Shown here one piece after another: positions 13,243 through 63,076 of a stretch of 63,334 nucleotides of DNA. This DNA is from Acutalibacteraceae bacterium (GTDB taxonomy: Bacteria; Bacillota; Clostridia; Oscillospirales; Acutalibacteraceae). Below the pieces are notes generated by a model. It was not told the DNA's origin. It was given only the letters and a program-made list of their open reading frames with translations, and searched no databases. The stretch spans positions 1 through 63,334 of the forward strand of contig JAZOVO010000094.1 in the NCBI GenBank assembly GCA_045658745.1, written 5' to 3'. The translations under genes were made by a program, and so were the position numbers. Position 1 is the stretch's first letter, and every line of letters begins with the position of its first letter.

Positions 13243-15507
13243 ATGAAGAAAGACAAAAAAATTCAGGACCTGATGGATTTCTACGGTGAATGGTTCAACG
13301 ACGGAAAAACCCTTGAAAAGGGCAAAATGACACAGAGCCTTTACCCCTATGAAAGCATCTTCTCACCCATTCAGGTCGGTAAGCTGACAATCAAAAACAG
13401 ACTTGTAATGGCTCCCATGGGTAACATTTCAATGTGCGACGAAACAGGCCGTCCCAACGAAAAGATGATTGCCTATTTCACCGAAAGAGCAAAGGGCGGT
13501 GTAGGTCTTATCACAACGGGTCTTGTTCCCGTTTCCCACGGTCTTGACCACACAATCACCGAGCTTGACAAGCTTACATACTTCCCCCGCCTTGACAGAA
13601 GCCGTACCTGCTATGCCGGCTGGCGTGATCTTTCCGCAAACATCCATTCCTACGGCGCAAGAGTGTTCATTCAGGTTACTCCCGGTCTCGGCCGAGTAGG
13701 TAACCCCCAGTGCCTTGTCAATTCAATGAAGCTTCCTCAGTCCGCTTCAATGAATCCGAGCTGGTATATGCCTCAGGTGCCCTGTATTCCTATGAGCGCA
13801 ATGAAGCTCAACAAGATTATCAATAACATCGGTCAGTGTGCCGCCGACGCAAAGGCAATGAACATTGACGGTGTATATCTCCACGGTCACGAGGGCTACC
13901 TTATGGAGCAGCTCACCAACCCCGCCTTCAACCGCCGCCTTATGGGTCCCTTCAAGGACTGGCAGGCATTCGGTATCAAGACAATCAAGAAAATCCGTGA
14001 GCGCTGCGGTAAGAACTTCCCCATTATGTACCGTATCGACCTTTCACTTGCACTCAACGAGACCTACGGCGACAAGATGAACACCGTTTCCTCACTCAGG
14101 AAGTTCAGAAACGGCAGAACTATCGCTATGACTCTCGATTATATGAAGAACCTTGTTGAAGCAGGCGTTGATATGTTCGACGTTGACCTTGGCTGCTACG
14201 ACAACTGGTGGCTTCCCCATCCTCCCGGATCAATGCCTCCCGGCTGCTTCCTTGATATTGCAAAAATTGCAAAGGACTACTTCAAGGAAAACAACATCGT
14301 GTCAAACCTCGGCGTACCCGTTCCCGTTGTAGCTGTAGGTAAGCTCGGCTATCCCGACCTTGCAGAGCAGGCTCTCCGCGACGAAAAGTGCGATATGGTC
14401 ATGCTCGGACGTCCTCTTCTTGCTGACCCCGAATGGCCCAACAAGGCAAGAACGGGCAGAGTAAAGGAAATCATTCCCTGCATCGGCTGTCAGGAGGCCT
14501 GCCTCAATGAGTTTGTTGAGGGCGGACATCCCCAGTGTGCAGTTAACCCGAGAACGGCCTTTGAAGAGGTTTATCCGAAGCAGCCTCCCAAGGCAGAAAA
14601 GGCTCTTAAGGTTGCCGTTATCGGTGCAGGCCCCGCAGGTGTTGAATGTGCCGTTACCGCAGCTATGAGAGGTCACGATGTAACAATCCTTGAAAAGAGC
14701 GACCGTATCGGCGGACGTCTCAATCCCGGCTCAAAGCCCGGTATCAAGTTTGACATCGTCAACTATATTGAATTTATGAAAAACCGCCTCGAAAAAGCTG
14801 AAAAGGAATACGGCCTTAAGGTTAAGCTCGGCACAGAAGCAACTCCCGAGCTTCTTAAAAAGGGCAAGTATGATAAGGTTGTTGTTTCCGCAGGTACAAA
14901 GGACGTTGTTCTTCCCGTTGCAGGTGTTGATAAGAACAAGTGGTATCAGGCAGTTGATATCCTTGAGCATCCCGAAAAAATCAAGGATGCAAAGAAGGTT
15001 GTTGTTATCGGCGGCGGTGTTGTAGGCTGTGAGACCGCTTACTTCCTTAATAAGGAGCACGGCAAGGAAGCAACCGTTGTTGAAATGACAGAGTATATGA
15101 TGAATCATACCTGTACCGCAAACCGCGGCTACCTTCTTAAATATATGTACGATTCAGGCGTTAAGCTCTTTAACTGCACAAAGCTCCTTTCAATTGAGGA
15201 CAAGGGCGTAAAGGTGCTTCGCAATATGGATAAGTCAGTTCCCAATCCCTACCTTACCTGGAATCCCATCCTTCCCGAAAACGTGCTCAATCCTCTTGCA
15301 CCGAAGGTAAAGGAAAAGAACGAGGAGCAGTTTATCGAGGCTGATGCAATCATTATGGCAGCCGGCGGCAGACCCGACGAAAACCTCTTCCTTGACATTC
15401 AGCAGAAGTGTCCCGAAATTGAGGTTTACAACATCGGTGACTCCTTCAAGGGCGGCAAGGTGTTTGAGGCTACAAAGTCAGGCTATAACTGTGCACTTAA
15501 TTTATAA
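13243..15507 (+). CDS. 2-enoate / 2,4-dienoyl-CoA reductase-family flavoenzyme (OYE barrel + 4Fe-4S + FAD/NAD(P) domains)
   Basis: 754 aa. N-terminal OYE-like barrel, Cys cluster CIGCQEACL..C, then VIGAGPAG and VIGGGVVG dinucleotide folds. Confidence 0.8.
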   Translation: MKKDKKIQDLMDFYGEWFNDGKTLEKGKMTQSLYPYESIFSPIQVGKLTIKNRLVMAPMGNISMCDETGRPNEKMIAYFTERAKGGVGLITTGLVPVSHGLDHTITELDKLTYFPRLDRSRTCYAGWRDLSANIHSYGARVFIQVTPGLGRVGNPQCLVNSMKLPQSASMNPSWYMPQVPCIPMSAMKLNKIINNIGQCAADAKAMNIDGVYLHGHEGYLMEQLTNPAFNRRLMGPFKDWQAFGIKTIKKIRERCGKNFPIMYRIDLSLALNETYGDKMNTVSSLRKFRNGRTIAMTLDYMKNLVEAGVDMFDVDLGCYDNWWLPHPPGSMPPGCFLDIAKIAKDYFKENNIVSNLGVPVPVVAVGKLGYPDLAEQALRDEKCDMVMLGRPLLADPEWPNKARTGRVKEIIPCIGCQEACLNEFVEGGHPQCAVNPRTAFEEVYPKQPPKAEKALKVAVIGAGPAGVECAVTAAMRGHDVTILEKSDRIGGRLNPGSKPGIKFDIVNYIEFMKNRLEKAEKEYGLKVKLGTEATPELLKKGKYDKVVVSAGTKDVVLPVAGVDKNKWYQAVDILEHPEKIKDAKKVVVIGGGVVGCETAYFLNKEHGKEATVVEMTEYMMNHTCTANRGYLLKYMYDSGVKLFNCTKLLSIEDKGVKVLRNMDKSVPNPYLTWNPILPENVLNPLAPKVKEKNEEQFIEADAIIMAAGGRPDENLFLDIQQKCPEIEVYNIGDSFKGGKVFEATKSGYNCALNL

Positions 15508-15531: not shown

Positions 15532-15769
15532 AAATGCAAAGTGTAAAATGCAAAATGCAAAATGGAGGGTCGCTTCGCTCCGATTATATCCGCTTTAATG
15601 TTGTACTGAATTTCAGCATTACTCCACCTGACCACATTATGAATAAAATTATTATAATTTTCACACCTGCAGTTTAATGAAATCTGTATTTTGCGGGAAC
15701 AAAGTTTAATGTTTAACAAAACTGACCCGCGACCTTAATTTTGCATTTTGCACTTTGCATTTTGCATTT
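15532..15769 (+). mobile_element. MITE-like element with (AAATGC)n terminal inverted repeats, copy 1
   Basis: Left TIR AAATGCAAAGTGTAAAATGCAAAATGCAAAATG, right TIR its complement. Subterminal GGTCGC...GCGACC. Lies inside the apparent operon, between the reductase stop and the AcnX start. Confidence 0.8.
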
Positions 15770-17683: not shown

Positions 17684-17735
17684 TCGCTCGCCGCGGGGCT
17701 TTCTTTTCTTGGAAGAAAAGAAACAAAAGAACTTT
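17684..17735 (-). repeat. SPE-A copy
   Basis: Ends 8 nt from the ldh stop, sense to ldh. Hairpin stem variant TGTTTCTTTTCTT/AAGAAAAGAAAG. Confidence 0.85.
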
Positions 17736-17743
17736 GCTTGTTT

Positions 17744-18691
17744 TTAATATTTCACGTTCCTGATAATTTCCTTCAGACACTCGGCACTTCTCTGAAGAGC
17801 AAGAGTCTCCTTAGTTGTAAGAGGAAGCAGAAGCTTGCTTGTTGCACCCTCTCTGCCTACAACGTTGAGAAGGCTGAGGCAGACATCGTCAATGCCGTAT
17901 TCACCGTGAAGCATTGTTGAAACGGTGAGGGGAGTATCAATACCGCCCATAAGACTGCGGCAGATGTGGCAGACGGAAGCGGAAACCGCGTAGAAGGTTG
18001 CACCCTTGTCAAGGATAACGCGTGCGCCTGAGTTGCGGACATAGTTTTCAACAATGTCAAAATCAATGTCGGGATAAAGCTTACCGTCAGCGCGGATAAT
18101 TGAGGTGCTCAGCTCTGCAATGGGGATGTTTGAGATATTTGCAAGTGACCAGGGTACAAATGAGGAGTCGCCGTGCTCACCCATAACATAAGCGTGAACG
18201 TTGCGCTCGTTGATGCCGTAAATCTTGGAAAGCTTTGCACGGAGTCTTGCGGTATCAAGGATTGTACCTGAGCCGATTACTCTCTCCTCGGGGATGCCTG
18301 AGTTTTTGCAGAACACATAAGTAAGAACATCAACGGGGTTACTTACGATGATATATGTTGCATCGGGTGCATACTTTGTGATTTCGGGTGTGATGCTGTT
18401 GAGAATATCAATATTTATCTGTGCAAGGTCGAGGCGTGACATACCGGGCTTTCTTGCGGCGCCTGATGTGATAATTACAATGTTTGAATCCTTTGCGTCG
18501 CTGTACTCGCCTGAGTAAACACGGCAGGGAGTACAGAAGGGTGTGCCCTGCTGAATGTCGAGAGCTTCGCCGAATGCCTTTTTGCTGTTGATGTCAATCA
18601 TACAGATTTCGTTGGCAATACCCATAACCATAAGGGTGTAAGAAATTGTTGAGCCAACACTGCCCGAGCCGATAATTGTGATTTTTTTCAT
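17744..18691 (-). CDS. ldh: L-lactate dehydrogenase
   Basis: 315 aa. N-terminal IIGSGSVG and catalytic-region GEHGDS. L-LDH length and motifs. Confidence 0.9.
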   Translation of the reverse strand: MKKITIIGSGSVGSTISYTLMVMGIANEICMIDINSKKAFGEALDIQQGTPFCTPCRVYSGEYSDAKDSNIVIITSGAARKPGMSRLDLAQINIDILNSITPEITKYAPDATYIIVSNPVDVLTYVFCKNSGIPEERVIGSGTILDTARLRAKLSKIYGINERNVHAYVMGEHGDSSFVPWSLANISNIPIAELSTSIIRADGKLYPDIDFDIVENYVRNSGARVILDKGATFYAVSASVCHICRSLMGGIDTPLTVSTMLHGEYGIDDVCLSLLNVVGREGATSKLLLPLTTKETLALQRSAECLKEIIRNVKY

Positions 18692-19597: not shown

Positions 19598-19824
19598 AAT
19601 GCAAAATGCAAAATGTAAAATGCAAAATGAATGGTCGCTTCGCTCCGTATTATACCCGTGTTAAGCTTGCTTTGATTTTTACAGCTTTACCGCAAAAGTG
19701 CGGGTAATTATAATTTACTGTTTCGAAATTGCATGAAATTTATTTATGCAGGTTACAGTTTACAGTTGTGCAAATCGTACCCCTCGACCGCAATTTTGCA
19801 TTTTGCATTTTTAATTTTGCATTT
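19598..19824 (+). mobile_element. (AAATGC)n-TIR MITE-like element, copy 2
   Basis: TIRs at 19598-19629 and 19793-19824. The right TIR overlaps the stop codon (19823-19825) of the deacetylase gene. Confidence 0.8.
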
Positions 19825-27748: not shown

Positions 27749-27769
27749 AGTAGTCAGTAGTCAGTAGTC
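27749..27769 (+). repeat. (AGTAGTC)3 heptamer array
   Basis: Three perfect tandem heptamers followed by AGGG + hairpin. Same module at 31727, 37121 (degenerate), 43098 and 60425, plus a single unit at 15509. Confidence 0.8.
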
Positions 27770-27789
27770 AGGGATGCCTTCGGCGGGTT

Positions 27790-27876
27790 AAATGCAAAAT
27801 GCAAAATGCAAAATGCAAAATTATTGGTCGCTTCGCTCCGAATTGTAAGCGGACACGGCAAGCCGTGTCCCTACGG
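27790..27876 (+). mobile_element. Left-end fragment of the (AAATGC)n MITE fused to a CTAC-flanked hairpin
   Basis: (AAATGC)5 + GGTCGCTTCGCTCCG, then GCGGACACGGCAAGCCGTGTCCCTACGG. There is no right TIR; the sequence continues into the 430-nt core. Confidence 0.7.
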
Positions 27877-27885
27877 TAACTCATA

Positions 27886-28317
27886 CAACCCACGTCCGTC
27901 TGTACAACCTTGGAGGACGGATATATCTGAAAGCACCCACGGAGCGGATTGCGAATGTCGGGTACACGGTAGTTAAAAGGCTGGCGGAAAATTAGACGAT
28001 TGCGGATTTTGATAAACTCGACGGACGTAGCGGACTCATTGGTAGAAAGTATCCTTAAGCAGAGTTGTACGTGAGCTTTACCCTCGGGTAGAGCAGTAGT
28101 AATGTGAATTTTTCCGTCAGTGGGGACGTTGCAAGAACTACGGCGGTGGGATGAGGGGAGAAGTGTTACTCCTTTAATCACGGCAGATGCGGAAAAATTC
28201 ACCGCCACTGCGGACCTCCTCGACGGACCAAAGCGCGTTTTTGCTTACTTTTGTCGCAATCTACAAAAGTAAGTGCCGCCCGCACAGGGCTGTAGAACTA
28301 AAAAGCAACAACCGCGG
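27886..28317. repeat. ~430-nt conserved non-coding core, copy 1 (candidate structured RNA / non-autonomous element)
   Basis: Colinear with 31850-32279, 37328-37756 and 55736-56243, all in the same orientation. No conserved ORF. Compensatory hairpin substitutions between copies. Functional strand unknown. Confidence 0.85.
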
Positions 28318-28561
28318 AGAGAGAAAAGGAATTTCTTGCGGCAGGAGCGAGCCCCTGCCCTACGGTTTAACCGTACCGCCATCATAAAATATACGGTTTC
28401 AGACAGCAGAACGTAAAAAAAGCAACCGCGGCGGGTAAAAATCAACAAGCCGCCGATGCGGCGGCGCTACAATATAATCCGAACGCGGACGTGTAAAAAA
28501 CAAAGAGGGCGGCAGATTGCCGCCCCTACGCGGATACACATAATTAAAAGTCATCGGTAAA

Positions 28562-28594: not shown

Positions 28595-28626
28595 GCAAGC
28601 TTTTGTAAAAGCTTGGCCAAAACTTT
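28595..28626 (-). repeat. SPE-H copy
   Basis: Sense to the minus-strand gene. The AAAGTTTTGG leader overlaps its TAA stop (28625-28627). Confidence 0.85.
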
Positions 28627-29497
28627 ATGCTCTTTTTTCCTCTAAAAGCCTTGCCATATCCTCAGGCAGCTCCGCCTTAACCTCAATCCTCTCACCCGTA
28701 ACAGGATGCCTGAACACAACCTCACCGCAATGTAACGCCTGCCTGCCGATTGTCGGATGCTCACACCCGTACATTCTGTCACCGTAAAGCGGCGTGCCGA
28801 GAAAAGCAAAATGAACCCTTATCTGATGTGTCCTGCCCGTTTCAAGGTGGATACGTAAAAAGCTGTAATCCTCACCGCTTTCAAGCACCTCATAATGCGT
28901 GACGGCTCTGTCACCGCGGTCGTCAGCCGTGCGGTAGGTCTTCATCGGGTCGGGTCGGTAAATCGGCTTGTCAATCGTTCCGCTTCCCTCATAATGCCCC
29001 GTGGCAATCGCATAATAGGTCTTTTCAAAATTTCCCGAAAGCCTCGCCGCTGCGTGACTGTTAAGGGCGCAGATTACAAGTCCGCTCGTTCCCTTATCAA
29101 GCCTTCCCACCGCACGGAAGGAAAGGCTCTTGCCCTTTTTTGTAAGGTATCCCGCCACCGCATTTGCCAGAGTGTCACCCTGATGATTGTGGCTTTCGTG
29201 CATAGGAAGCATTGCGTGCTTGTCTATAACAAGCACGTCCTCGTCCTCATATACAACGCTGAGGGGGTAGTCCGTCGGTATAGAATGGTTTTCATCCTCG
29301 GGAATGGAAAGGGTCACTCTGTCACCGCCGTGAAGCAGGTCAACGGTACGTGCATTCTCTCCGTTTATTTTTATTCCGCCCTCAACTCGCTTAAGTGAGC
29401 GCAGAAGCCTTACGGAAATTTTAACGTGACCTCTCAGAAAGCTTATCAGCTTCTTGCCCTCAAAATATTCTTCAACAGTATATTCTATTATTCTCAA
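28625..29497 (-). CDS. RluA-family pseudouridine synthase with S4-like N-terminus (RluD-like)
   Basis: 290 aa. Catalytic motif VGRLDKGTSGLV and THQIRVH. Confidence 0.85.
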   Translation of the reverse strand: MRIIEYTVEEYFEGKKLISFLRGHVKISVRLLRSLKRVEGGIKINGENARTVDLLHGGDRVTLSIPEDENHSIPTDYPLSVVYEDEDVLVIDKHAMLPMHESHNHQGDTLANAVAGYLTKKGKSLSFRAVGRLDKGTSGLVICALNSHAAARLSGNFEKTYYAIATGHYEGSGTIDKPIYRPDPMKTYRTADDRGDRAVTHYEVLESGEDYSFLRIHLETGRTHQIRVHFAFLGTPLYGDRMYGCEHPTIGRQALHCGEVVFRHPVTGERIEVKAELPEDMARLLEEKRA

Positions 29498-29502
29498 TTC
29501 AA

Positions 29503-30957
29503 TTAACCCTTTTTGGAGTATTCGTCAAGAAGACGCTTCTTTTCGTCCCAGAGCTTCTGCGAAAGGTCAACATAATAGGTATGGGGATTTTCAAAGCGCT
29601 TTACCTCGTCCCAGAGAGTGTCAACCTGCTCGTTGCAGTATTTCTTGATATCCTTGATATCGGGGCTCTGATAGCAGCTTTCGCCCTTGTCGAAGATTTT
29701 TACAAGCAGGGGCTTTGCCTCAATATTAGTAACCGTCTTGCGCTTCCATGTGTAAACGGGGTCGAAAAGCTCATAGCTGTCAACACCTTCAAGCTCCTCG
29801 TCAATAAGCGTGATTACGTCAGCCAGAGCCTTGCCGCTGTCCTTGTCAAAAAGGCGGTACAGCTTCTTTGCGCAGGGAGTTGTAATCTTCTGAACATTTT
29901 CACTCAATTTGATACGGGGTACGGGAACTCCGTCCTCCTCAACGGCTACGATTTTATAAACGCCGCCGAAAACGGGAGCGGATGCCGCTGTAATAAGCCT
30001 TTCGCCTACGCCGAAGGAGTCAACCTGAGCACCCTGCATAAGCATATCGCGGATAATAATTTCATCAAGGGAGTTACTTGCAACAATCTTACAGTCGGGG
30101 AAGCCTGCATCGTCGAGCATCTTCCTTGCCTTTTTTGAAAGATATGTGATATCACCTGAGTCGATTCTGATACCCTTGGGACGGAAGCCTCTGGGAAGCA
30201 CCTCTCTTCTGAACGCCTCAATAGCGTTGGGGATACCCGTCTTAAGCACATTGTAGGTATCTACAAGGAGTGTGCAGTTGTCGGGATACTGTCTTGCATA
30301 GGCGCAGAAGGCTTCAAGCTCGTCGCCGAAAAGCTGAATCCAGGAGTGAGCCATTGTGCCTACTGCGGGGATACCGAAATCTCTCTCGTCAATAGCGCAG
30401 GCAGTTGCGTCACAGCCGCCGATATAAGCTGCTCTTGCGCCGTAAATTGCGGCGTCATAGCCCTGGGCGCGGCGTGAGCCGAATTCCATTATAATGCGGT
30501 CACCTGCTGCTCTTTTAAGGCGGTTTGCCTTAGTTGCGATAAGTGACTGATGGTTTATTGTAAGAAGTATCATCGTTTCAATAAGCTGAGCCTCAATAAC
30601 GGGGCCCTTTACAACAATAATAGGCTCACCGGGGAAAATCGGAGTACCCTCGGGGATAGCCCACACGTCGCAGGAGAACTTAAAGTTACGCAGATAATCG
30701 ATGAAATCCTCGTTGAAGCCCTTTTTGGCAAAAAGCTCCAAATCCTTTTGTGTAAATTTGAGGTTTTTCAGATAGTCGATAAGCTGTCTCAGACCTGCCA
30801 TAATTGCAAAGCCGCCGTTGTCGGGAACTCTTCTGAAGAACATATCGAAATAAGCAACCTTATCCTGCATGCCGTTGGCAAAATAGCCGTTAGCCATTGA
30901 AAGCTCATAGAAATCCATAAGCATTGTAAGGTTTCTTGATTCAAGTGTGTTGCTCAT
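29503..30957 (-). CDS. pncB: Nicotinate phosphoribosyltransferase
   Basis: 484 aa. The N-terminal MLMDFYELSMANGYF and the length are typical of Firmicutes PncB. Confidence 0.9.
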   Translation of the reverse strand: MSNTLESRNLTMLMDFYELSMANGYFANGMQDKVAYFDMFFRRVPDNGGFAIMAGLRQLIDYLKNLKFTQKDLELFAKKGFNEDFIDYLRNFKFSCDVWAIPEGTPIFPGEPIIVVKGPVIEAQLIETMILLTINHQSLIATKANRLKRAAGDRIIMEFGSRRAQGYDAAIYGARAAYIGGCDATACAIDERDFGIPAVGTMAHSWIQLFGDELEAFCAYARQYPDNCTLLVDTYNVLKTGIPNAIEAFRREVLPRGFRPKGIRIDSGDITYLSKKARKMLDDAGFPDCKIVASNSLDEIIIRDMLMQGAQVDSFGVGERLITAASAPVFGGVYKIVAVEEDGVPVPRIKLSENVQKITTPCAKKLYRLFDKDSGKALADVITLIDEELEGVDSYELFDPVYTWKRKTVTNIEAKPLLVKIFDKGESCYQSPDIKDIKKYCNEQVDTLWDEVKRFENPHTYYVDLSQKLWDEKKRLLDEYSKKG

Positions 30958-31141
30958 TTTATCAACCGCCTTTTATAAATATGGTATAATTATACTACTT
31001 TGTGTCAAAAATTTAAAGACATTTAAAGATTTTTTTATTTTAAAAATAATTTGCAAGCAGCGGTATAATTTCGCTTTGGAAAATTAGATAAAATCAACAA
31101 GAAAATTGTTGCATTTTTAACAAAAATGTCATTGTATTTCC

Positions 31142-31170
31142 TTGACAAACTTTTCTCGCTGTGGTAAAAT
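31142..31170 (+). promoter_or_regulatory. sigma-A-type promoter of XRE gene
   Basis: TTGACA (31142-31147), 17-nt spacer, TAAAAT (31165-31170) with a TGG extended -10. Confidence 0.7.
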
Positions 31171-31229
31171 TTTCAAGGAAATCAGTCAATACTGATACTA
31201 TAGCAAATAACATGAAGGTGTGAAAAAAC

Positions 31230-31478
31230 ATGAGAATTCGTAAGCAGGCCCTTGGTGACCGTAACATTGTAGGCGCAAGAATTGAGGCAAAAAGAAAAGA
31301 GTTAGGTATTAAGCAGATTGACCTGCTCACCCAGCTTCAGATTAAGGGTGTTGAGCTTACTGCTTCAGGACTTTCAAAGCTTGAAGGACAGATCAGAAGC
31401 GTATGCGACTATGAGCTTGTAGCTATCGCTGAGGTGCTCGGCGTTTCAATCAACTGGCTTGTAGGCAAGGAAGACTGA
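31230..31478 (+). CDS. XRE-family helix-turn-helix regulator
   Basis: 82 aa. HTH_3-like LGIKQIDLLTQLQIKGVELTASGLSKLE. Confidence 0.8.
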   Translation: MRIRKQALGDRNIVGARIEAKRKELGIKQIDLLTQLQIKGVELTASGLSKLEGQIRSVCDYELVAIAEVLGVSINWLVGKED

Positions 31479-31502
31479 TTAAAACAGTCCGAATAAATAA
31501 AA

Positions 31503-31633: not shown

Positions 31634-31650
31634 GGAGCGACGCATTGTAA

Positions 31651-31722
31651 CCCCTCCGTCAAAATCGGAGATTTTGACACCTCCCCTTTCAGGGGAGGAA
31701 ACTGTACACCCTCGGAGGACGG
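31651..31722. repeat. Multi-hairpin module (CCTCCGTC...GGAGGACGG type)
   Basis: GTCAAAATC-GGAG-ATTTTGAC and CCTCCCC-TTTC-AGGGGAGG. Near-identical to the 79-nt insertion inside core copy 4. Confidence 0.75.
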
Positions 31723-31849
31723 AGTTGTAGAGTAGTCAGTAGCCAGTAGTCAGGGAACGTCTGCGGCGTTTGGGGTTACCCTCTCCGTCACCCTGCGGGT
31801 GCCACCTCTCCCAAAGGGAGAGGCAAGTATACAACCCGCCCCACTCATT

Positions 31850-32279
31850 CATCCCACGTTCGTCTGTAGAACCTTGGAGGACGGATATATATAAAATAAC
31901 CCGCGGAGCGGATTGCGAATGTCGGGTACACGGTGGTTGAAGAGGTGGCAGAAAATTAGACGATTGCGGATTTTGATAAATATGACGGACGTAGCGGACT
32001 CATTTGTACAAATTATCCTTAAATAGAGTTGTACGTGAGCTTTACCCTCGGGTAGAGCAGTAGTAATGTGAATTTTTCCGTCAGTGGGGACGTTGCAAGA
32101 ACTACGGCGGTGGGATGAGGGGAGAAGTGTTAACCGTTATGAACAGGTTAATACGGAAAAATTCACCGCCACTGCGGACCTCCTCGTACAACCCAAGAGC
32201 GCTTTGCATACTTTGCCGCTCCGGGCAAAGTATGAGCCCCGCGGCTTGAGCGGGTAGAACATAAAAGAGGCAACCACGG
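31850..32279. repeat. ~430-nt conserved non-coding core, copy 2
   Basis: Shares the first 49 nt of the variable arm with copy 1, then diverges into its own hairpin TTAACC..GGTTAA. Confidence 0.85.
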
Positions 32280-32382
32280 AAGATGAAAAGCAACAACGTA
32301 AGGTTTAAAAAAATAGAACGTAAAAATAAGTAACCGCGTAAAATAAAAAAAGACGAAGGGGGCTCTGCCTCCCTCACCCTCC

Positions 32383-36389: not shown

Positions 36390-37117
36390 TAATGATGTTT
36401 ATTGTGTTATCGATATTATGGTGTTGCGCGGTGTTTTACCCTTGTCACTGACCGTGCAGATGCGTGGCCAATCAACTCTTTGTCCGATTATTCCGGGGTC
36501 TGAAGTGCCCGGAATTTCATTTCCATATCGGCAACGTCGGCTATTATATATATTTATGGCGGCATTGTCAAATTTTATGCGGTTTCAGCGCTCTTTTTTT
36601 CGATTTTGCAAATTTTTTTCTCGAGAAAAAAAGCGTTATTTTTATGCAACATAAACAAAAAAGCCTTTTGGGCAACCTTGAAACCTTGGGCAATGTTCCG
36701 AAAATGCCCGAAAAGGGCAAAATCAGCAAATTTGTGAAAAAAAACAGAGGGGGTTTGTGGTATATTTTGCACAACTTTCACAAGGTTTATATGTGCATAT
36801 TTACTAAATTGATGCTAAAAAGGAATTAAAACGACATTTTTTGACACTTTTTTCGACCTTTTTTTTGAAAAAATTTCTCAAAAACTGCGAAAGAATTTTT
36901 TTCGTACGGGAAAAAATTCATCATAGGAATGTGGAATTTTTTCGCGAAAAATCAACAAGATGTTGTACAAAGGTAAAAATTTTCCCACAAAATACCAATT
37001 TGTGTGGAATGTGTGGAAAAGCCCGCTTGGTCAATATGCACAATTTTGGCACATTTTTTAATTGGAAAGAAATGGAAATTATGCAATTTTTCAGAAGCGA
37101 TTCGAGATGAAAAGGGG
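36390..37117. other. ~700-bp AT-rich non-coding island with T-tract/A-tract palindromes
   Basis: TTTTTTTCTCGAGAAAAAAA, TTTTTTCGCGAAAAA, TTTTTTTCGTACGGGAAAAAA, TTTTTTTTGAAAAAA. Only low-complexity ORFs. Confidence 0.6.
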
Positions 37118-37144
37118 GGCGAGTAGCCAGTAGAGCAGCCAGGG

Positions 37145-37245: not shown

Positions 37246-37327
37246 ATTTAGGGTCGCTTCGCTCCGATTATATGCGGACACGGCAAGCCGTGTCCCTACG
37301 GTAGTCATACAACCACATCTACTCATT

Positions 37328-37756
37328 CAACCCACGTCCGTCTGTAGAACCTTGGAGGACGGATGATACTAAAACAACCCGCGTTAGCGGATTGCGAATG
37401 TCGGGTACACGGCAGTTAAAAGACCGGCAGAAAATTAGACGATTGCGGATTTTATTAAAAATGACGGACGTAGCGGACTCGTTGGTAGAGCTGACTCTTA
37501 AACAGAGTTGTCCGTGAGCTTTCTCCTCGCATAGAGCAGTAGTAATGTGAATTTTTCCGTTGGGTACAAGGTTATTTCCTTATCATTCTGCAGAAATTGA
37601 AGGCATTATGATTTAAGCAAACGTAACGGCGGAAAAATCCGCCGCCACTGCGGACCTCTTCGTACAACCCAAGAGCGCTTTGGTTACTTTGTCGCTCCGG
37701 ACAAAGTAACAGCCCCGCCGGCTTGAGGCGGTAGAACTTAGAAGCAATAGCCACGG
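37328..37756. repeat. ~430-nt conserved non-coding core, copy 3
   Basis: Same scaffold as copies 1 and 2, with an unrelated 66-nt variable arm (37564-37629). Confidence 0.85.
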
Positions 37757-37939
37757 ATGATTAAAAAGCGATAACGTAAGGTTTAAAAAGCAGAACGTGA
37801 AAGAAGAAGCAACCGCGTGAAATAAAAAGCAAAATACACGCCTTAACGGCGTAAAAAATACATATATATAATAGTATACGAAAAACACCGCCCTGGACTT
37901 CCAAAGCGGTGTCAGATTATATGCATTTAATAAACAAAT

Positions 37940-37958
37940 GAGGGGGCTCTGCCCCCTC
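37940..37958 (-). terminator. Intrinsic terminator of proS
   Basis: On the minus strand: GAGGGGGC-AGA-GCCCCCTC followed by ATTTGTTTATT. Confidence 0.6.
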
Positions 37959-37964
37959 ACCCCT

Positions 37965-37996
37965 GCAAGCTTTTGTAAAAGCTTGACCAAAACTTT
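37965..37996 (-). repeat. SPE-H copy
   Basis: Ends 18 nt from the proS stop, sense to proS. Confidence 0.85.
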
Positions 37997-38014
37997 TCTT
38001 GTTTTGCTTTACTT

Positions 38015-39457
38015 TTAATATGCCTTGCCCCAGTATACAAGGTGCTTTGCTTCCTTACCGCAGCAAACACACTTGTCGCTGATAATCTCCTGATTAAGAG
38101 GCATACAGCGTGAGCCTACGCCTGTAAGCTCCTTAACCTTGTCCTCACATTCCTCGTCGCCGCACCACATAGCCTTAACAAAGCCGTCACCGTTCTCCTC
38201 GAGTGCCTTTGTGATTTCGTCGAGTGTTGTGCAGGTGTAGGTTCTCTTTTCTCTGTTTGCAAGAGCCTTGTTGAAGATGCCCTCGTTAACCTCGTTGAGC
38301 TTATCCTTAACGCTTTCTGCAAGAGTATCAAGTGCAACAACAGTCTTTTCTCTGTTGTGACGTGTAACAAGCACACATTCGCCCTTTTCGATATCGCGGG
38401 GACCTACTTCGATTCTTACGGGTACGCCCTTCATTTCGTACTCTGCATACTTCCAGCCTGCAGAGTTGTTGCTGTCGTCAAGCTTTACGCGGATGCCTGC
38501 CTTCTTAAGGTCAGCCATAAGCTCGTTTGCCTTTTCAAGCACGCCTTCCTTATGCTGTGCAACGGGGATGATAACTGCCTGAATGGGAGCAACTGCGGGA
38601 GGAAGAACAAGACCGTTGTCGTCACCGTGAGTCATAATGATAGCTCCGATGAGTCTTGTTGTAACACCCCAGGATGTCTGATGGGGATATTCGAGCTTGT
38701 TTTCCTTGCTCTGATACTGAATGCCGAAGGCCTTTGCAAAGCCGTCGCCGAAGTAGTGTGACGTACCTGCCTGAAGAGCCTTACCGTCGTGCATAAGAGC
38801 CTCAATAGCATAGGTTGAAACTGCGCCTGCAAACTTGTCGCTTTCGGTCTTCTTACCCTGAATAATGGGGATAGCAAGATACTTTTCGCAGAAGTCTGTG
38901 TAAACGTTAAGCATCTTCTCTGTCTCTGTGATTGCTTCCTCGGCTGTAGCGTGGATTGTGTGACCCTCCTGCCAGAGGAATTCTCTTGAGCGGAGGAAGG
39001 GACGTGTTGTCTTCTCCCAGCGTACAACACTTACCCACTGATTGTAAAGCTTGGGAAGGTCTCTGTGTGAGTGGATAATGTTAGCATAATGCTCACAGAA
39101 AAGAGTTTCTGATGTAGGACGGACGCAGAGTCTTTCCTCAAGCTTCTCGCTGCCGCCGTGGGTTACCCATGCAACCTCGGGAGCAAAGCCCTTAACGTGT
39201 TCCTTCTCCTTCTGAAGGAGTGATTCGGGGATAAACATAGGCATACACACATTCTCGTGGCCTGTTTCCTTGAACATACCGTCAAGGATGCGCTGAATGT
39301 TTTCCCAGATAGCGTAAGCGTAGGGGCGGATAACCATACAGCCCTTTACGCTTGTGTATTCAACAAGCTCTGCCTTTTTGCAGATGTCGGTATACCACTT
39401 GGCAAAATCTACCTCCATAGAGGTGATTTCTTCAACCATTTTTTTATCGTTTGCCAT
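38015..39457 (-). CDS. proS: Prolyl-tRNA synthetase (archaeal/eukaryote-like type)
   Basis: 480 aa. Class IIa motifs, no INS editing domain, C-terminal Cys-rich domain ending in Tyr. Confidence 0.95.
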
Positions 39458-39534
39458 AGGATTTTTTCCTTTCTTTTTTGTGTAAAAAACACGGGAAAAT
39501 TACATATATATAATAGTATACGAAAAATGCAAAA

Positions 39535-39760
39535 TGCAAAATGCAAAATGCAAAATTGTGGTCGCGGGATAGCTTTGTCTGATATAAAGCTTAACTGCCG
39601 CAAAATGCAGTTTTCAATTAACTGCAGGTGTACATATTATAATATATCAAGATAATATAGTTTGGCGGAATAATGTGACTTTTAAGTACAACATTAAAGC
39701 GGATATAATCGGAGCGAAGCGACCCTTCATTTTGCACTTTGCATTTTGCATTTTGCATTT
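39535..39760 (-). mobile_element. (AAATGC)n-TIR MITE-like element, copy 3 (inverted relative to copy 1)
   Basis: TIRs at 39535-39556 and 39728-39760. Subterminal GGTCGCGGG ... GGAGCGAAGCGACCC. Fills the ileS-proS intergenic region. Confidence 0.8.
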
Positions 39761-43041: not shown

Positions 43042-43325
43042 GTGAGGCGAGGGCCGAGGGCCAAGGGCCAAAGGGCCGAGTGAAGGTGAGGTGTGATTTA
43101 AAGTAGTAAGTAGCCGGTAGTCAGTAGTAAGGATTGTCGCTTTGCGACAAAAGGATTTTGTAGGGCGGATATCAGCCGCACGCTGTACTCCTGACTTTTG
43201 GCACTCGGCCCTTGGCCCTTGGCCCTCGGCCCTCACTCCTTGCACTTGTTCGGAACTCGCCTCCTGATTTTTTGGCACTTGGTTCCTGATACTCGGCCCT
43301 TGGCCCTCGGCCCTCGGCCCTCCCC
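43042..43325. repeat. Long inverted repeat built from (GGCCCTY)n heptamers, with a duplicated right arm
   Basis: Left arm 43042-43082 is GTGAGGCGAGGGCCGAGGGCCAAGGGCCAAAGGGCCGAGTG. Right arm 43202-43236 is its complement. A second right-arm copy lies at 43291-43325. The loop carries an AGTAGTC-type array. Confidence 0.8.
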
Positions 43326-55636: not shown

Positions 55637-55664
55637 GCCTTCCGTGAAAGCGGAAGGCCTTTTT
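55637..55664 (+). terminator. Intrinsic terminator
   Basis: GCCTTCCG-TGAAAG-CGGAAGGC followed by CTTTTT. Confidence 0.75.
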
Positions 55665-55735: not shown

Positions 55736-56243
55736 CAACCCACGTCCGTCTGTAGAACCTTGGAGAACGGGCGAATACCCCTCCGTCAAAATCGGAGATT
55801 TTGACACCTCCCCTTTCAGGGGAGGAAACCGTACAACCTCGGAGGACGGATGAAGCTGAAACAGCCCGCGGAGCGGATTGCGAATGTCGGGTACGCGGCA
55901 GTTAAAAGGCTGGCGGAAAATTAGACGATTGCGGATTTTAATAAACTCGTCGGACGTAGCGGACTCGTTTGTAGAATTGATTCTTAAATAGAGTTGTACG
56001 TGAGCTTTACCCTCGCATAGAGCAGTAGTAATGTGAATTTTTCCGTCAGTATTACGTGTGATTATTACGGCGGTACGATGAGATGAGAAGTCTTGTATTT
56101 ACGACCACGGCAGCTACGGAAAAATCCCCCGCCACTGCGGACCCCCGCGTAGAACTTAAGAGCGTTTTGGTTACTTTGCCGCTCCGGGCAAAGTAACAGC
56201 CCTGCCGGCTTGAGGCGGTAGAACCAAAAAGTCGTAACCACGG
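55736..56243. repeat. ~430-nt conserved non-coding core, copy 4 (with nested 79-nt module)
   Basis: 429 nt once 55771-55849 is removed. Own 67-nt variable arm (56050-56116). Confidence 0.85.
55771..55849. mobile_element. 79-nt multi-hairpin module inserted into core copy 4
   Basis: Near-identical to 31644-31722. The flanks GTAGAACCTTGGAGAACGG and GTACAACCTCGGAGGACGG look like a duplicated junction. Confidence 0.7.
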
Positions 56244-56300
56244 AGTATATAAAAAATAAATGTAAAAAACACCGCCTTTTTCAAGACGGTGTAAATTATT

Positions 56301-56349
56301 TCGCTCGCCGCGGGGCGTTCTTTCTTGTAAGAAAGAACCAAAGAACTTT
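56301..56349 (-). repeat. SPE-A copy
   Basis: Ends 21 nt from the gdhA stop, sense to gdhA. Confidence 0.85.
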
Positions 56350-58167: not shown

Positions 58168-58330
58168 AGTTAAGAGTAAGATACATTGTTTTGGTCATGC
58201 AGTGCGGGTCCTGTGCGACAGAACACCCCGAACCATGTCAGGCGGGAGACCGAGCAGCATTAAGGGGAATGTCTGTGCGACACAGCTACGCCTGCACTGT
58301 ATGACCGAGAAAAGGTGTCTTACTCTTTTT
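58168..58330 (+). ncRNA. ffs: Signal recognition particle RNA (small, 4.5S-like/short form)
   Basis: GAACCATGTCAGG...AGCAGCATTAAG matches the conserved domain-IV core as I remember it from Bacillus scRNA. Closing helices GGTCATGCAGTGC/GCACTGTATGACC and GAGTAAGA/TCTTACTC, then TTTTT. Directly upstream of dnaX, as in B. subtilis. Ends are approximate. Confidence 0.8.
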
Positions 58331-58551
58331 AAATGCAGAATTCAAAATGCAAAATGTAAAATTGCGGTCGCGGGCAAAGCTTGTGGCTGAAAATTACTGT
58401 GAGCTGCCGCACAGCAGCTTATGCATAACGGAAAGCTCCGTTAATTATAAAAATCCTCCCGTGGGAGGTGGCAGACCGAAGGTCTGGCGGAGGGCGCTAT
58501 AATGCGTCGCAGACCATTAATTTTGCACTTTGCATTTTGCATTTTGCATTT
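58331..58551 (-). mobile_element. (AAATGC)n-TIR MITE-like element, copy 4
   Basis: TIRs at 58331-58362 and 58520-58551. Subterminal GGTCGCGGG as in copy 3. Inserted between ffs and dnaX. Confidence 0.8.
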
Positions 58552-58593
58552 TCAAGCCATACGCATACTTAAAACAACAAAGGTGGGATAAAA

Positions 58594-60424: not shown

Positions 60425-60459
60425 AGTAGTCAGTAGTCAGTAGTCAGTAGTCAGTAGTC
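60425..60459 (+). repeat. (AGTAGTC)5 heptamer array
   Basis: Five perfect tandem heptamers starting 17 nt after the dnaX stop. Confidence 0.9.
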
Positions 60460-60462
60460 AGG

Positions 60463-62729: not shown

Positions 62730-63076
62730 GGGGATGAAAGGATTTCGACGGGGATCCTGAATCACGATAAGCGGGTAGTGGAGTGGCACCACTATAAAAG
62801 TCACACGTTTTAAAAATAAACGACAATACTACAGTTTTAAAGGCTGCTTAAAGCGGCCCGTCTTGGTTAAGAGTACTGCGGCTTAACTAAAGGCGTCGAT
62901 CAGCAGTGAACGTGAACGGCAGAGCGCCTTGTATGCCGTCATGCATCAAAGGCTACCAAGCCCTTAAGCCTGTCATTCGGCGTGAGGGTGAGGGAATGTT
63001 AAAAGACTGACTGCACCCGGAGAAGGTTGTGCGGATGGGTTTTCGGACGCGGTTTCGATTACCGCCATCTCCACCA
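62730..63076 (+). ncRNA. ssrA: tmRNA
   Basis: 5' end GGGGATGAAAGGATTTCGACGGGG and 3' end GGACGCGGTTTCGATTACCGCCATCTCCACCA. Tag reading frame ...GAC AAT ACT ACA GTT TTA AAG GCT GCT TAA (..DNTTVLKAA*). Confidence 0.95.

Follow-up and report, generated by a model that had tools for sequence, protein, structure and literature searches.

Repeats of the REP/BIME, BOX, RUP and Correia type are 30-200 nucleotides (nt) long and essentially palindromes, and the RNAs ROOL, GOLLD, OLE and raiA are all represented in Rfam. Several multi-copy structured RNAs that were first called orphans, HEARO included, later turned out to be the RNA halves of programmable nucleases. HEARO RNA, the IscB omega-RNA (RF02033, said to go back to Weinberg et al. 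2010), is reportedly large, ornate, multi-copy and apparently mobile, with many copies that lack the associated open reading frame (ORF). PATEs, described by Meers et al. (PMC10055086), derive from IS200/IS605 elements, encode no protein and carry an omega-RNA. Here we compare with these systems a repeated element of ~440 nt from an Acutalibacteraceae bacterium, found on contig JAZOVO010000094.1 of assembly GCA_045658745.1. The window is the whole analyzed stretch of this contig, 63,334 nt in length. We conclude that the four copies in the window are, to judge from their sequences, most probably paralogues of a lineage-restricted non-coding element. As far as our searches show, the family is undescribed, and the general class to which it belongs, that of multi-copy structured intergenic elements, is known.

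Exactly four copies, all on the plus strand, occur in the window; MAFFT, a blastn comparison of the window with itself and nhmmer agree that there is no fifth. The initial annotation had described four co-oriented, colinear copies, and these stand, with our coordinates differing by a few bases. The full core is present in copy 1 (27879-28319; nhmmer E=1e-128), copy 2 (31843-32280) and copy 3 (37322-37757, downstream of proS), and copy 4 (55736-56245) consists of the core with a duplicated 5' hairpin and a nested mini-element. The ~79 nt that the annotation had counted as extra in copy 4 are a second 5' hairpin plus a copy of an independent mini-element. The core measures ~440 nt, or up to ~520 nt with a conserved tail, which extends to ~32345 in copy 2 (where it includes a second AGAACGT..AACCGCG unit) and to ~37830 in copy 3. 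A second GCAGAACGT..AACCGCGG unit can be read from the sequence in the tail of copy 1 (28406-28431, plus strand), with equivalents at ~32313-32340 in copy 2 and ~37790-37818 in copy 3 and none in copy 4. Sequence past the 3' end is common to copies 2 and 3. Pairwise identity by blastn is 88.5% over 374 nt between copies 1 and 2, 80% between copies 1 and 4, and 75% between copies 1 and 3. Identity among the four copies varies by region: it reaches 84-89% in the 5' half, is 72-84% between the 3' arm of stem H5 and the 3' end, and lies at 30-81% within an internal variable arm; the invariant blocks of 23-29 nt match those quoted in the annotation.

Stops interrupt every reading frame in each copy, including all the plus-strand frames. 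The 146-amino-acid (aa) ORF on the minus strand of copy 1 lacks a Pfam match, and the other copies do not preserve it. When copies are compared, the codon positions carry similar numbers of mismatches (e.g., 20/25/30), with no 3-periodicity. Taken together, these observations lead us to regard the element as real, repeated and non-coding, as had been proposed.

Relatives were reached via the syntenic loci of neighboring proteins in related uncultured Oscillospirales metagenome-assembled genomes (MAGs). Two diverged copies were found, at 17715-18150 of locus L026 and at 13965-14391 of locus L035, and a profile search of the ~383 kb of fetched loci returned no further full copy. Among the three lineages (window, L026 and L035), the 5' half is only 50-58% identical. 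At this distance, the real structural support lies in features on which the annotation had not drawn: the stem GTGAATTTTTCCG/CGGAAAAATTCAC and the 5' hairpin, each of which is re-formed from other sequence in a relative of ~50% identity, and the constant spacing of conserved blocks. The stem, H5, has 13-14 bp and spans 28104-28202 of copy 1, where GTGAATTTTTCCGT (28104-28117) pairs with GCGGAAAAATTCAC (28189-28202) on the plus strand. These arms are used in the window copies and in L026 and are replaced in L035 by CTGAAAATACCGA/TCGGTATTTTTAG, with 7 of the 13 pairs changed on both sides. The variable arm inside H5 (28118-28188 in copy 1) is 70-73 nt long in all six known copies. The 5' hairpin of copy 1 (27893-27923, plus strand) joins CGTCCGTC to GACGGATA across 15 nt; the window copies have CGTCCGTC and GACGGATG around these 15 nt, whereas L035 has AGAGAAT and ATTCTCT around a loop of equal length. 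The most conserved block, GAGCGGATTGCGAATGTCGG (27942-27961, plus strand), is the first of a series whose spacing is the same in the three lineages: [GT]AGCGG -7/8- TGTCGG -32/33- AGACNAT -27- [TA]AGCGG -32- TGTNCG.

Two further helices complete the model. An alternative long-range helix, H1 (27892-28028, plus strand), pairs ACGTCCGTC (27892-27900) with GACGGACGT (28020-28028) in the window copies, versus ACCCGTC with GACGGGT in L026. Because both use the same 5' arm, H1 and the 5' hairpin are mutually exclusive. Near the 3' end, hairpin H7 (28243-28274, plus strand; 11-13 bp) is preceded by AAGCGCGTTTTTG, shows double changes in all lineages, and belongs to a class of "TTTGG + palindrome" modules. 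It is followed by a short GC hairpin with an alternative 4-bp form (28274-28317, plus strand) and then by the end unit GTAGAACTAAAAAGCAACAACCGCGG. H5, the 5' hairpin, H1 and H7 all show compensatory changes, in hand-registered arms from three independent lineages. With these arms on a spliced alignment, 97% of the cells pair, compared with 26-46% when the partners are slid by 1-3 columns, and both sides have changed in 30 of the 52 pairs. We consider the overall fold likely, H5 and the 5' hairpin solid, and the remaining helices provisional.

Copies 1 and 4 offer an alternative to H5 that the remaining copies have not kept: here CTGGCGGAAAA can pair with TTTTCCGTCAG, which forms the inner part of H5's 5' arm (27981-27991 with 28110-28120, and 55910-55920 with 56039-56049). 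A pseudoknot that would join the GAGCGG block to the 3' hairpin loop was also considered and dropped, as it fails in copy 3 and L035 and is weak in L026; in copies 1, 2 and 4 it amounts to 8-bp matches that were equaled by 13-54 of 2000 shuffled loops.

H7 proved to be less specific than the other helices. Behind at least 12 window genes, 4-28 nt past the stop codon, there is a module made up of AAAGnnCTTTTGG and a 9-12 bp palindrome, always in the orientation of the gene's own strand. Sites of the form AAAGTTCTTTTGG plus palindrome are at 1685, 7513, 24337 and 45528 on the plus strand and at 56342, 45817, 37991, 32409, 28621, 25402, 8542 and 1852 on the minus strand. The palindromes are of three types (GGTTACTTTTCT/AGAAAAGTAACG, GGTTCTTTCT/AGAAAGAACG and TCAAGCTTT/AAAGCTTGC), and a separate terminator usually comes after the module. 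The module may be a REP-like repeat or a signal for RNA 3' ends or RNA stability. H7 with its leader AAGAGCGYTTTGG is one instance of this module, alike in both head and palindrome type. The whole 3' module (H7, GC hairpin and end unit) also stands alone at L026 6949-7016, with a similar end unit at L026 6990-7020. Since H7-type modules follow at least 12 stop codons and the 3' module occurs solo in L026, the covariation of H7 is a property of the palindrome class and not specific evidence for a 430-nt RNA. Both hairpins quoted in the annotation, and their sequences, are correct, and its claim of a conserved structure with compensatory changes holds, but the two hairpins chosen as evidence give the weakest support, the first of them being an instance of this genome-wide module. 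On sequence grounds, the element seems to end as genes do in this genome, in plus orientation.

The strand that is folded can be assessed from the same helices. Where well-defined helices contain exceptions, about four are G.U and one or two are A.C, the latter in H5 of copies 3 and 4. An A.C exception on the plus strand is a wobble on the minus strand. The alifold energy is -125.8 for the plus strand versus -115.4 for the minus strand, and the 3' module is oriented on the plus strand as it is behind genes, where it is always on the gene's own strand. Folding or reading of the plus strand is thereby favored, not proven. The annotation's argument that T-G wobble positions are tolerated only if the plus strand folds thus finds no more than mild support, as A.C exceptions also exist.

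The distribution of the element among close relatives is uneven. L026 (GCA_045643805.1) is colinear with the window at 19-41 kb and has an NAPRTase that is 96% identical at the protein level. Its copy has the locus and orientation of copy 3, downstream of proS, and it is without the element at the sites of copies 1 and 2. The segment with the rluA-like gene, the NAPRTase gene and an 82-aa ORF (window 28619-31482, L026 9491-12339) is inverted in L026, which places the breakpoints in the intergenic regions that hold copies 1 and 2. As these two copies are direct, not inverted, the inversion is not accounted for by simple recombination between them. The L026 copy sits at the locus of copy 3, and the 5' halves of the two are 56% identical (56-71% in the overall comparison of the elements); the adjoining 145-nt intergenic block (window 37757-38015, L026 18150-18400) is 88% identical. 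A diverged element beside so similar a block points to replacement or re-insertion and not to simple descent. We dropped the idea that copy 3 is a gene-conversion mosaic, because it is no closer to the L026 copy than copy 2 is. The 145-nt block includes AATACATATATATAATAGTATAC, a terminator and a post-stop module, and at L026 18400-19842 proS is called as two ORFs (206 and 247 aa), reflecting a frameshift or pseudogene or else an assembly error.

L035, whose ProRS is 90% identical, has its copy at a different locus, where a lysozyme gene and rnf are the neighbors and the orientation with respect to proS is reversed. The sister genomes L037 and L043 lack this copy: their ProRS and that of L035 are 97% identical, and their intergenic gaps measure 371 and 427 nt versus 1050 nt. 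The copy 4 site holds unrelated sequence in three relatives (L016-L018) and is empty downstream of GDH in L034. Exact boundaries were not obtained because the intergenic DNA of the relatives is too different. Two metagenome contigs stop ~216 nt after proS, at the expected start of the element, as is typical of assembly breaks caused by repeats. Deep divergence in close genomes, together with gains in single lineages, indicates the behavior of a mobile or replaceable element and not that of a vertically inherited gene.

The window is otherwise an ordinary Clostridia-type chromosome of 46% G+C with tRNA synthetases, dnaX-ybaB-recR, smpB, transfer-messenger RNA (tmRNA) and signal recognition particle (SRP) RNA. 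The nearest public relatives of its proteins are from MAGs labeled Ruminococcaceae, Acutalibacteraceae, Oscillospiraceae or Clostridia bacterium, with a best protein identity of 96%. Copies 1, 2 and 4 are situated between convergent genes, at a distance of 150-350 nt from a preceding plus-strand terminator, and copy 4 is flanked by two convergent terminators (55637-55658 on the plus strand and 56292-56269 on the minus strand). Every copy in the window has its 3' end turned toward that of a gene on the minus strand (rluA-like, ATP-grasp, proS or gdh), and so does the L035 relative. The neighbors of the six copies are housekeeping genes (pseudouridine synthase, NAPRTase, ATP-grasp, ProRS, MatE, GDH, lysozyme and Rnf). 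The window encodes no transposase, nuclease or reverse transcriptase; a Pfam scan of 39 of its longer ORFs and of the 146-aa ORF in copy 1 gave no transposase or nuclease, and neither the window nor the genes called in the fetched loci included one for TnpA, TnpB, IscB or a DEDD recombinase. The copies have no promoter-like or terminator-like site in common on either strand.

Database searches place the family outside described groups. At the gathering threshold, Rfam 15 matched only tmRNA and SRP RNA in the whole window; at E<=10, copies 1 and 3 and the L026 and L035 copies gave scattered chance matches, with no family hit twice. The cmscan check that the annotation had asked for therefore puts the element outside known Rfam families even at this permissive threshold; the families covered included HEARO, IS605-associated motifs, group I/II introns, ROOL, GOLLD, OLE, 6S, RNase P, T-boxes and riboswitches. 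Copy 1 had no match in plasmid and phage collections (blastn, "distant" mode), and viral contigs had none to two conserved blocks and one degenerate three-block pattern. An exact 19-mer gave 13 matches in metagenome contigs, and another gave 2 in GTDB representative genomes; all were chance matches confined to the 19-mer itself. These scans used exact words, so that diverged members would escape them. A full-text literature search found no match to the conserved motifs. On this evidence, the family is probably rare and narrowly distributed, in one genus-level clade. The tmRNA and small SRP RNA lie at 62730-63076 and 58202-58300, respectively, and are the only Rfam matches in the window. The predicted tmRNA tag, DNTTVLKAA, seems unusual. 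Such tags usually end in LAA.

Other small repeats are abundant in the same intergenic regions. The mini-element nested in copy 4 (74 nt; 55777-55850, plus strand) has a solo copy at 31650-31723 that is 97% identical, and its ends match those of the 5' hairpin of the element (TCCGTC ... TGTACAnCCTyGGAGGACGGA). It folds as nested hairpins and also occurs at 7578-7629 of L016/L018 and at 182-233 of L021. It is 94-98% identical across species whose genes share only about 85-93%, and this excess over gene identity suggests recent activity or transfer. Upstream of copy 1 lies an (AGTAGTC)n heptamer array (27749-27771, plus strand), and similar arrays lie upstream of copy 2 (31730-31756), copy 3 (~37113-37135) and the L026 copy, on both sides of the L035 copy (13885-13960 and 14443-14470), and alone after dnaX (60425-60461). 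It is not certain that they are part of the element. Elements of ~230 nt at 15532-15769, 19598-19824, 39524-39760 and 58331-58552 are bounded by inverted arrays with ~4.6 copies of the heptamer AAATGCA / TGCATTT. Their interiors are mostly unrelated and often contain TATAAT-like runs; half of one such element (27790-27847) abuts copy 1. At 43048-43322, an intergenic region upstream of an SDR gene holds G+C-rich heptamer arrays (CGAGGGC, TTGGCCC and CTCGGCC; 4-5 copies each).

We tentatively favor, with a confidence that falls a little short of even, the reading that the element is a gene-like cassette for a plus-strand structured RNA that duplicates or transposes within a small clade. In 5'-to-3' order, the cassette would consist of the 5' hairpin, a core of ~330 nt with the spaced blocks and the H5 stem and arm, and the 3' "TTTGG + palindrome" module in sense. 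Such a gene-like layout with a sense 3' module suggests that the element is read from the plus strand into a folded RNA product. The product would be a folded RNA that works with a protein encoded elsewhere, and the cassette would spread by transposition or duplication into harmless convergent intergenic regions. We infer transcription and its strand, RNA rather than single-stranded DNA as the folded species, the existence of a protein partner, and the way in which the element moves.

Several observations weigh against this interpretation. Neither the 63-kb window nor ~380 kb of related loci contains a candidate partner gene. There is no conserved sigma-70-like promoter upstream of the copies and no plus-strand intrinsic terminator after them, and no clean empty site, target duplication or terminal repeat marks an insertion. 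The covariation rests on six sequences representing three independent lineages; hand registration was used for the arms, several of which in L026 and L035 were chosen because they pair. Folding stability is unremarkable in five copies (z = -0.65 to -2.6), with -4.9 for L035. Finally, part of the "structure" may be generic palindromes acting on DNA, as the 5' and 3' hairpins also occur in other small repeats.

This last point leads to the strongest alternative, a composite repeat of the REP/BIME, BOX or MITE kind, whose palindromic modules are spread or rearranged purely as DNA and form hairpins in single-stranded DNA or are plain palindromes, with no RNA function. We consider it unlikely, though the most probable of the alternatives or nearly so. 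The window is full of modular small repeats, the 3' hairpin falls in the post-stop palindrome class and the 3' module is solo in L026, the ends of the 5' hairpin are common to the mini-element, no promoter or terminator was found, and copies 1, 2 and 4 occupy convergent intergenic sites that are "safe." However, unpaired blocks at fixed spacing over ~200 nt are not a feature of REP, BOX or MITE repeats, nor is a long-range stem kept at 50% identity with an insert of 70-73 nt. In addition, G.U exceptions exceed A.C exceptions, and the element lacks terminal inverted repeats and target duplications.

It is also conceivable, although rather improbable, that the copies are ordinary chromosomal genes of one family, coding for a structured RNA of a trans-acting or housekeeping type, and that segmental duplication, not mobility, has multiplied them. 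Structure and block spacing that are kept over deep divergence would be expected of such a gene, the 3' module is gene-like, and the colinear flanks shared by copies 1, 2 and 3 (the heptamer array upstream and a module that we label D4 downstream) are what segmental duplication would give. On the other hand, a host RNA should be present in every member of the clade at a stable locus, whereas here presence differs even between genomes with ProRS 97% identical. Members in closely related genomes are as little as 50-58% identical and have no conserved promoter, and the range is very narrow, with nothing found in exact 19-mer scans of GTDB representatives and metagenomes.

Quite doubtful is the proposal that the element is a protein-less IS200/IS605 element (PATE) or something similar, with a guide-RNA scaffold (a TnpB/IscB omega-RNA, HEARO-like RNA or analogue of the IS110 bridge RNA) for a nuclease or recombinase encoded elsewhere. 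At ~430 nt, with no ORF, several copies per genome, subterminal hairpins near both ends and a structured interior that makes sense only with a partner encoded elsewhere, the element does fit PATEs (PMC10055086), which are a few hundred nt long, and the inversion of the segment between copies 1 and 2 relative to L026 indicates recombination at these sites. It differs in that no sequence or Rfam link to IS605- or IscB-associated RNA exists (no match to HEARO or IS605-associated families at E<=10 in four copies), no guide-like segment was found, and TnpA, TnpB and IscB are lacking in ~440 kb of the clade, as is a DEDD recombinase gene in the window and fetched loci. The two end hairpins, set in by 14 nt at the 5' end and by 45-75 nt at the 3' end, do not resemble each other. 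The variable arm has no excess of 8-mer matches to its own flanks over the flanks of other copies, and copies 2 and 3 stay similar past the 3' end, where a guide would lie. An orphan guide-type scaffold, as the annotation had suggested, is possible, but no guide-like match to the flanks was found, and no nuclease gene lies nearby.

More speculative, and in our view a long shot, is a version of this proposal in which the element would be the RNA part of an undescribed RNA-guided or RNA-scaffolded mobile system. Such an RNA would be omega-RNA- or bridge-RNA-like with a new fold, and its protein partner would be encoded at another place in the genomes of these Oscillospirales. The 70-73 nt arm, constant in length but variable in sequence, would then be the programmable part, and recombination by the system would have left its footprint as the inversion between copies 1 and 2. 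Decay from a protein-coding gene or insertion sequence is exceedingly improbable and was excluded: the 146-aa minus-strand ORF of one copy is all that recommends it, and this ORF has no Pfam match and is lost in the other copies, stops occur in every frame of every copy with no conserved frame, substitutions are not 3-periodic, and the helices are kept by compensatory changes.

If it is transcribed, the element adds a large structured RNA family without known relatives, from little-studied uncultured gut or rumen Clostridia, and one that seems to be mobile or to duplicate among close genomes. Should the element prove to be no more than a composite repeat at the DNA level, it still documents an unusually rich system of modular repeats, including post-stop palindromes and heptamer-array elements. 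Such repeats appear to break metagenome assemblies of this clade.

Compared with the systems considered at the outset, the element is like HEARO in being a large, multi-copy, apparently mobile non-coding element, and it differs in that four divergent copies have no cmscan match at E<=10 and no ORF for HNH or IscB lies beside any of the six copies. IS110 bridge RNAs and the non-coding RNAs of retrons and DRT systems lie beside the recombinase or reverse transcriptase gene that they serve, whereas the six copies adjoin housekeeping genes. MITEs have terminal inverted repeats and target-site duplications; here no inverted repeat joins the ends, which are direct (CAACCCACG... and ...AACCRCGG), and the flanks of the four copies share no copy-specific target-site duplication. 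REP-type repeats resemble the element in their modularity, their position just downstream of genes, their convergent intergenic sites and the covarying arms of their palindromes, and H7 is in such a class. The element differs from them by its unique core of ~330 nt, its unpaired blocks at fixed spacing, and a long-range stem that is kept across 50% divergence. A palindrome of 20-40 nt with a conserved head, placed after genes in many copies, as in REP/BIME, is found in the 3' hairpin module only and does not describe the full 440-nt element. The evidence does not establish the entire element as a classical member of the IS200/IS605 or REP groups, which the annotation had also raised. With ROOL, GOLLD, OLE and raiA, the element shares a length of several hundred nt, a complex conserved fold, an origin in Clostridia or the rumen and a partner that was unknown at discovery; it differs in having no cmscan match, a far narrower range, several copies per genome and a presence that varies between sister species. 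Among the descriptions offered at the start, that of an undescribed non-coding RNA family or non-autonomous element is the one that fits.

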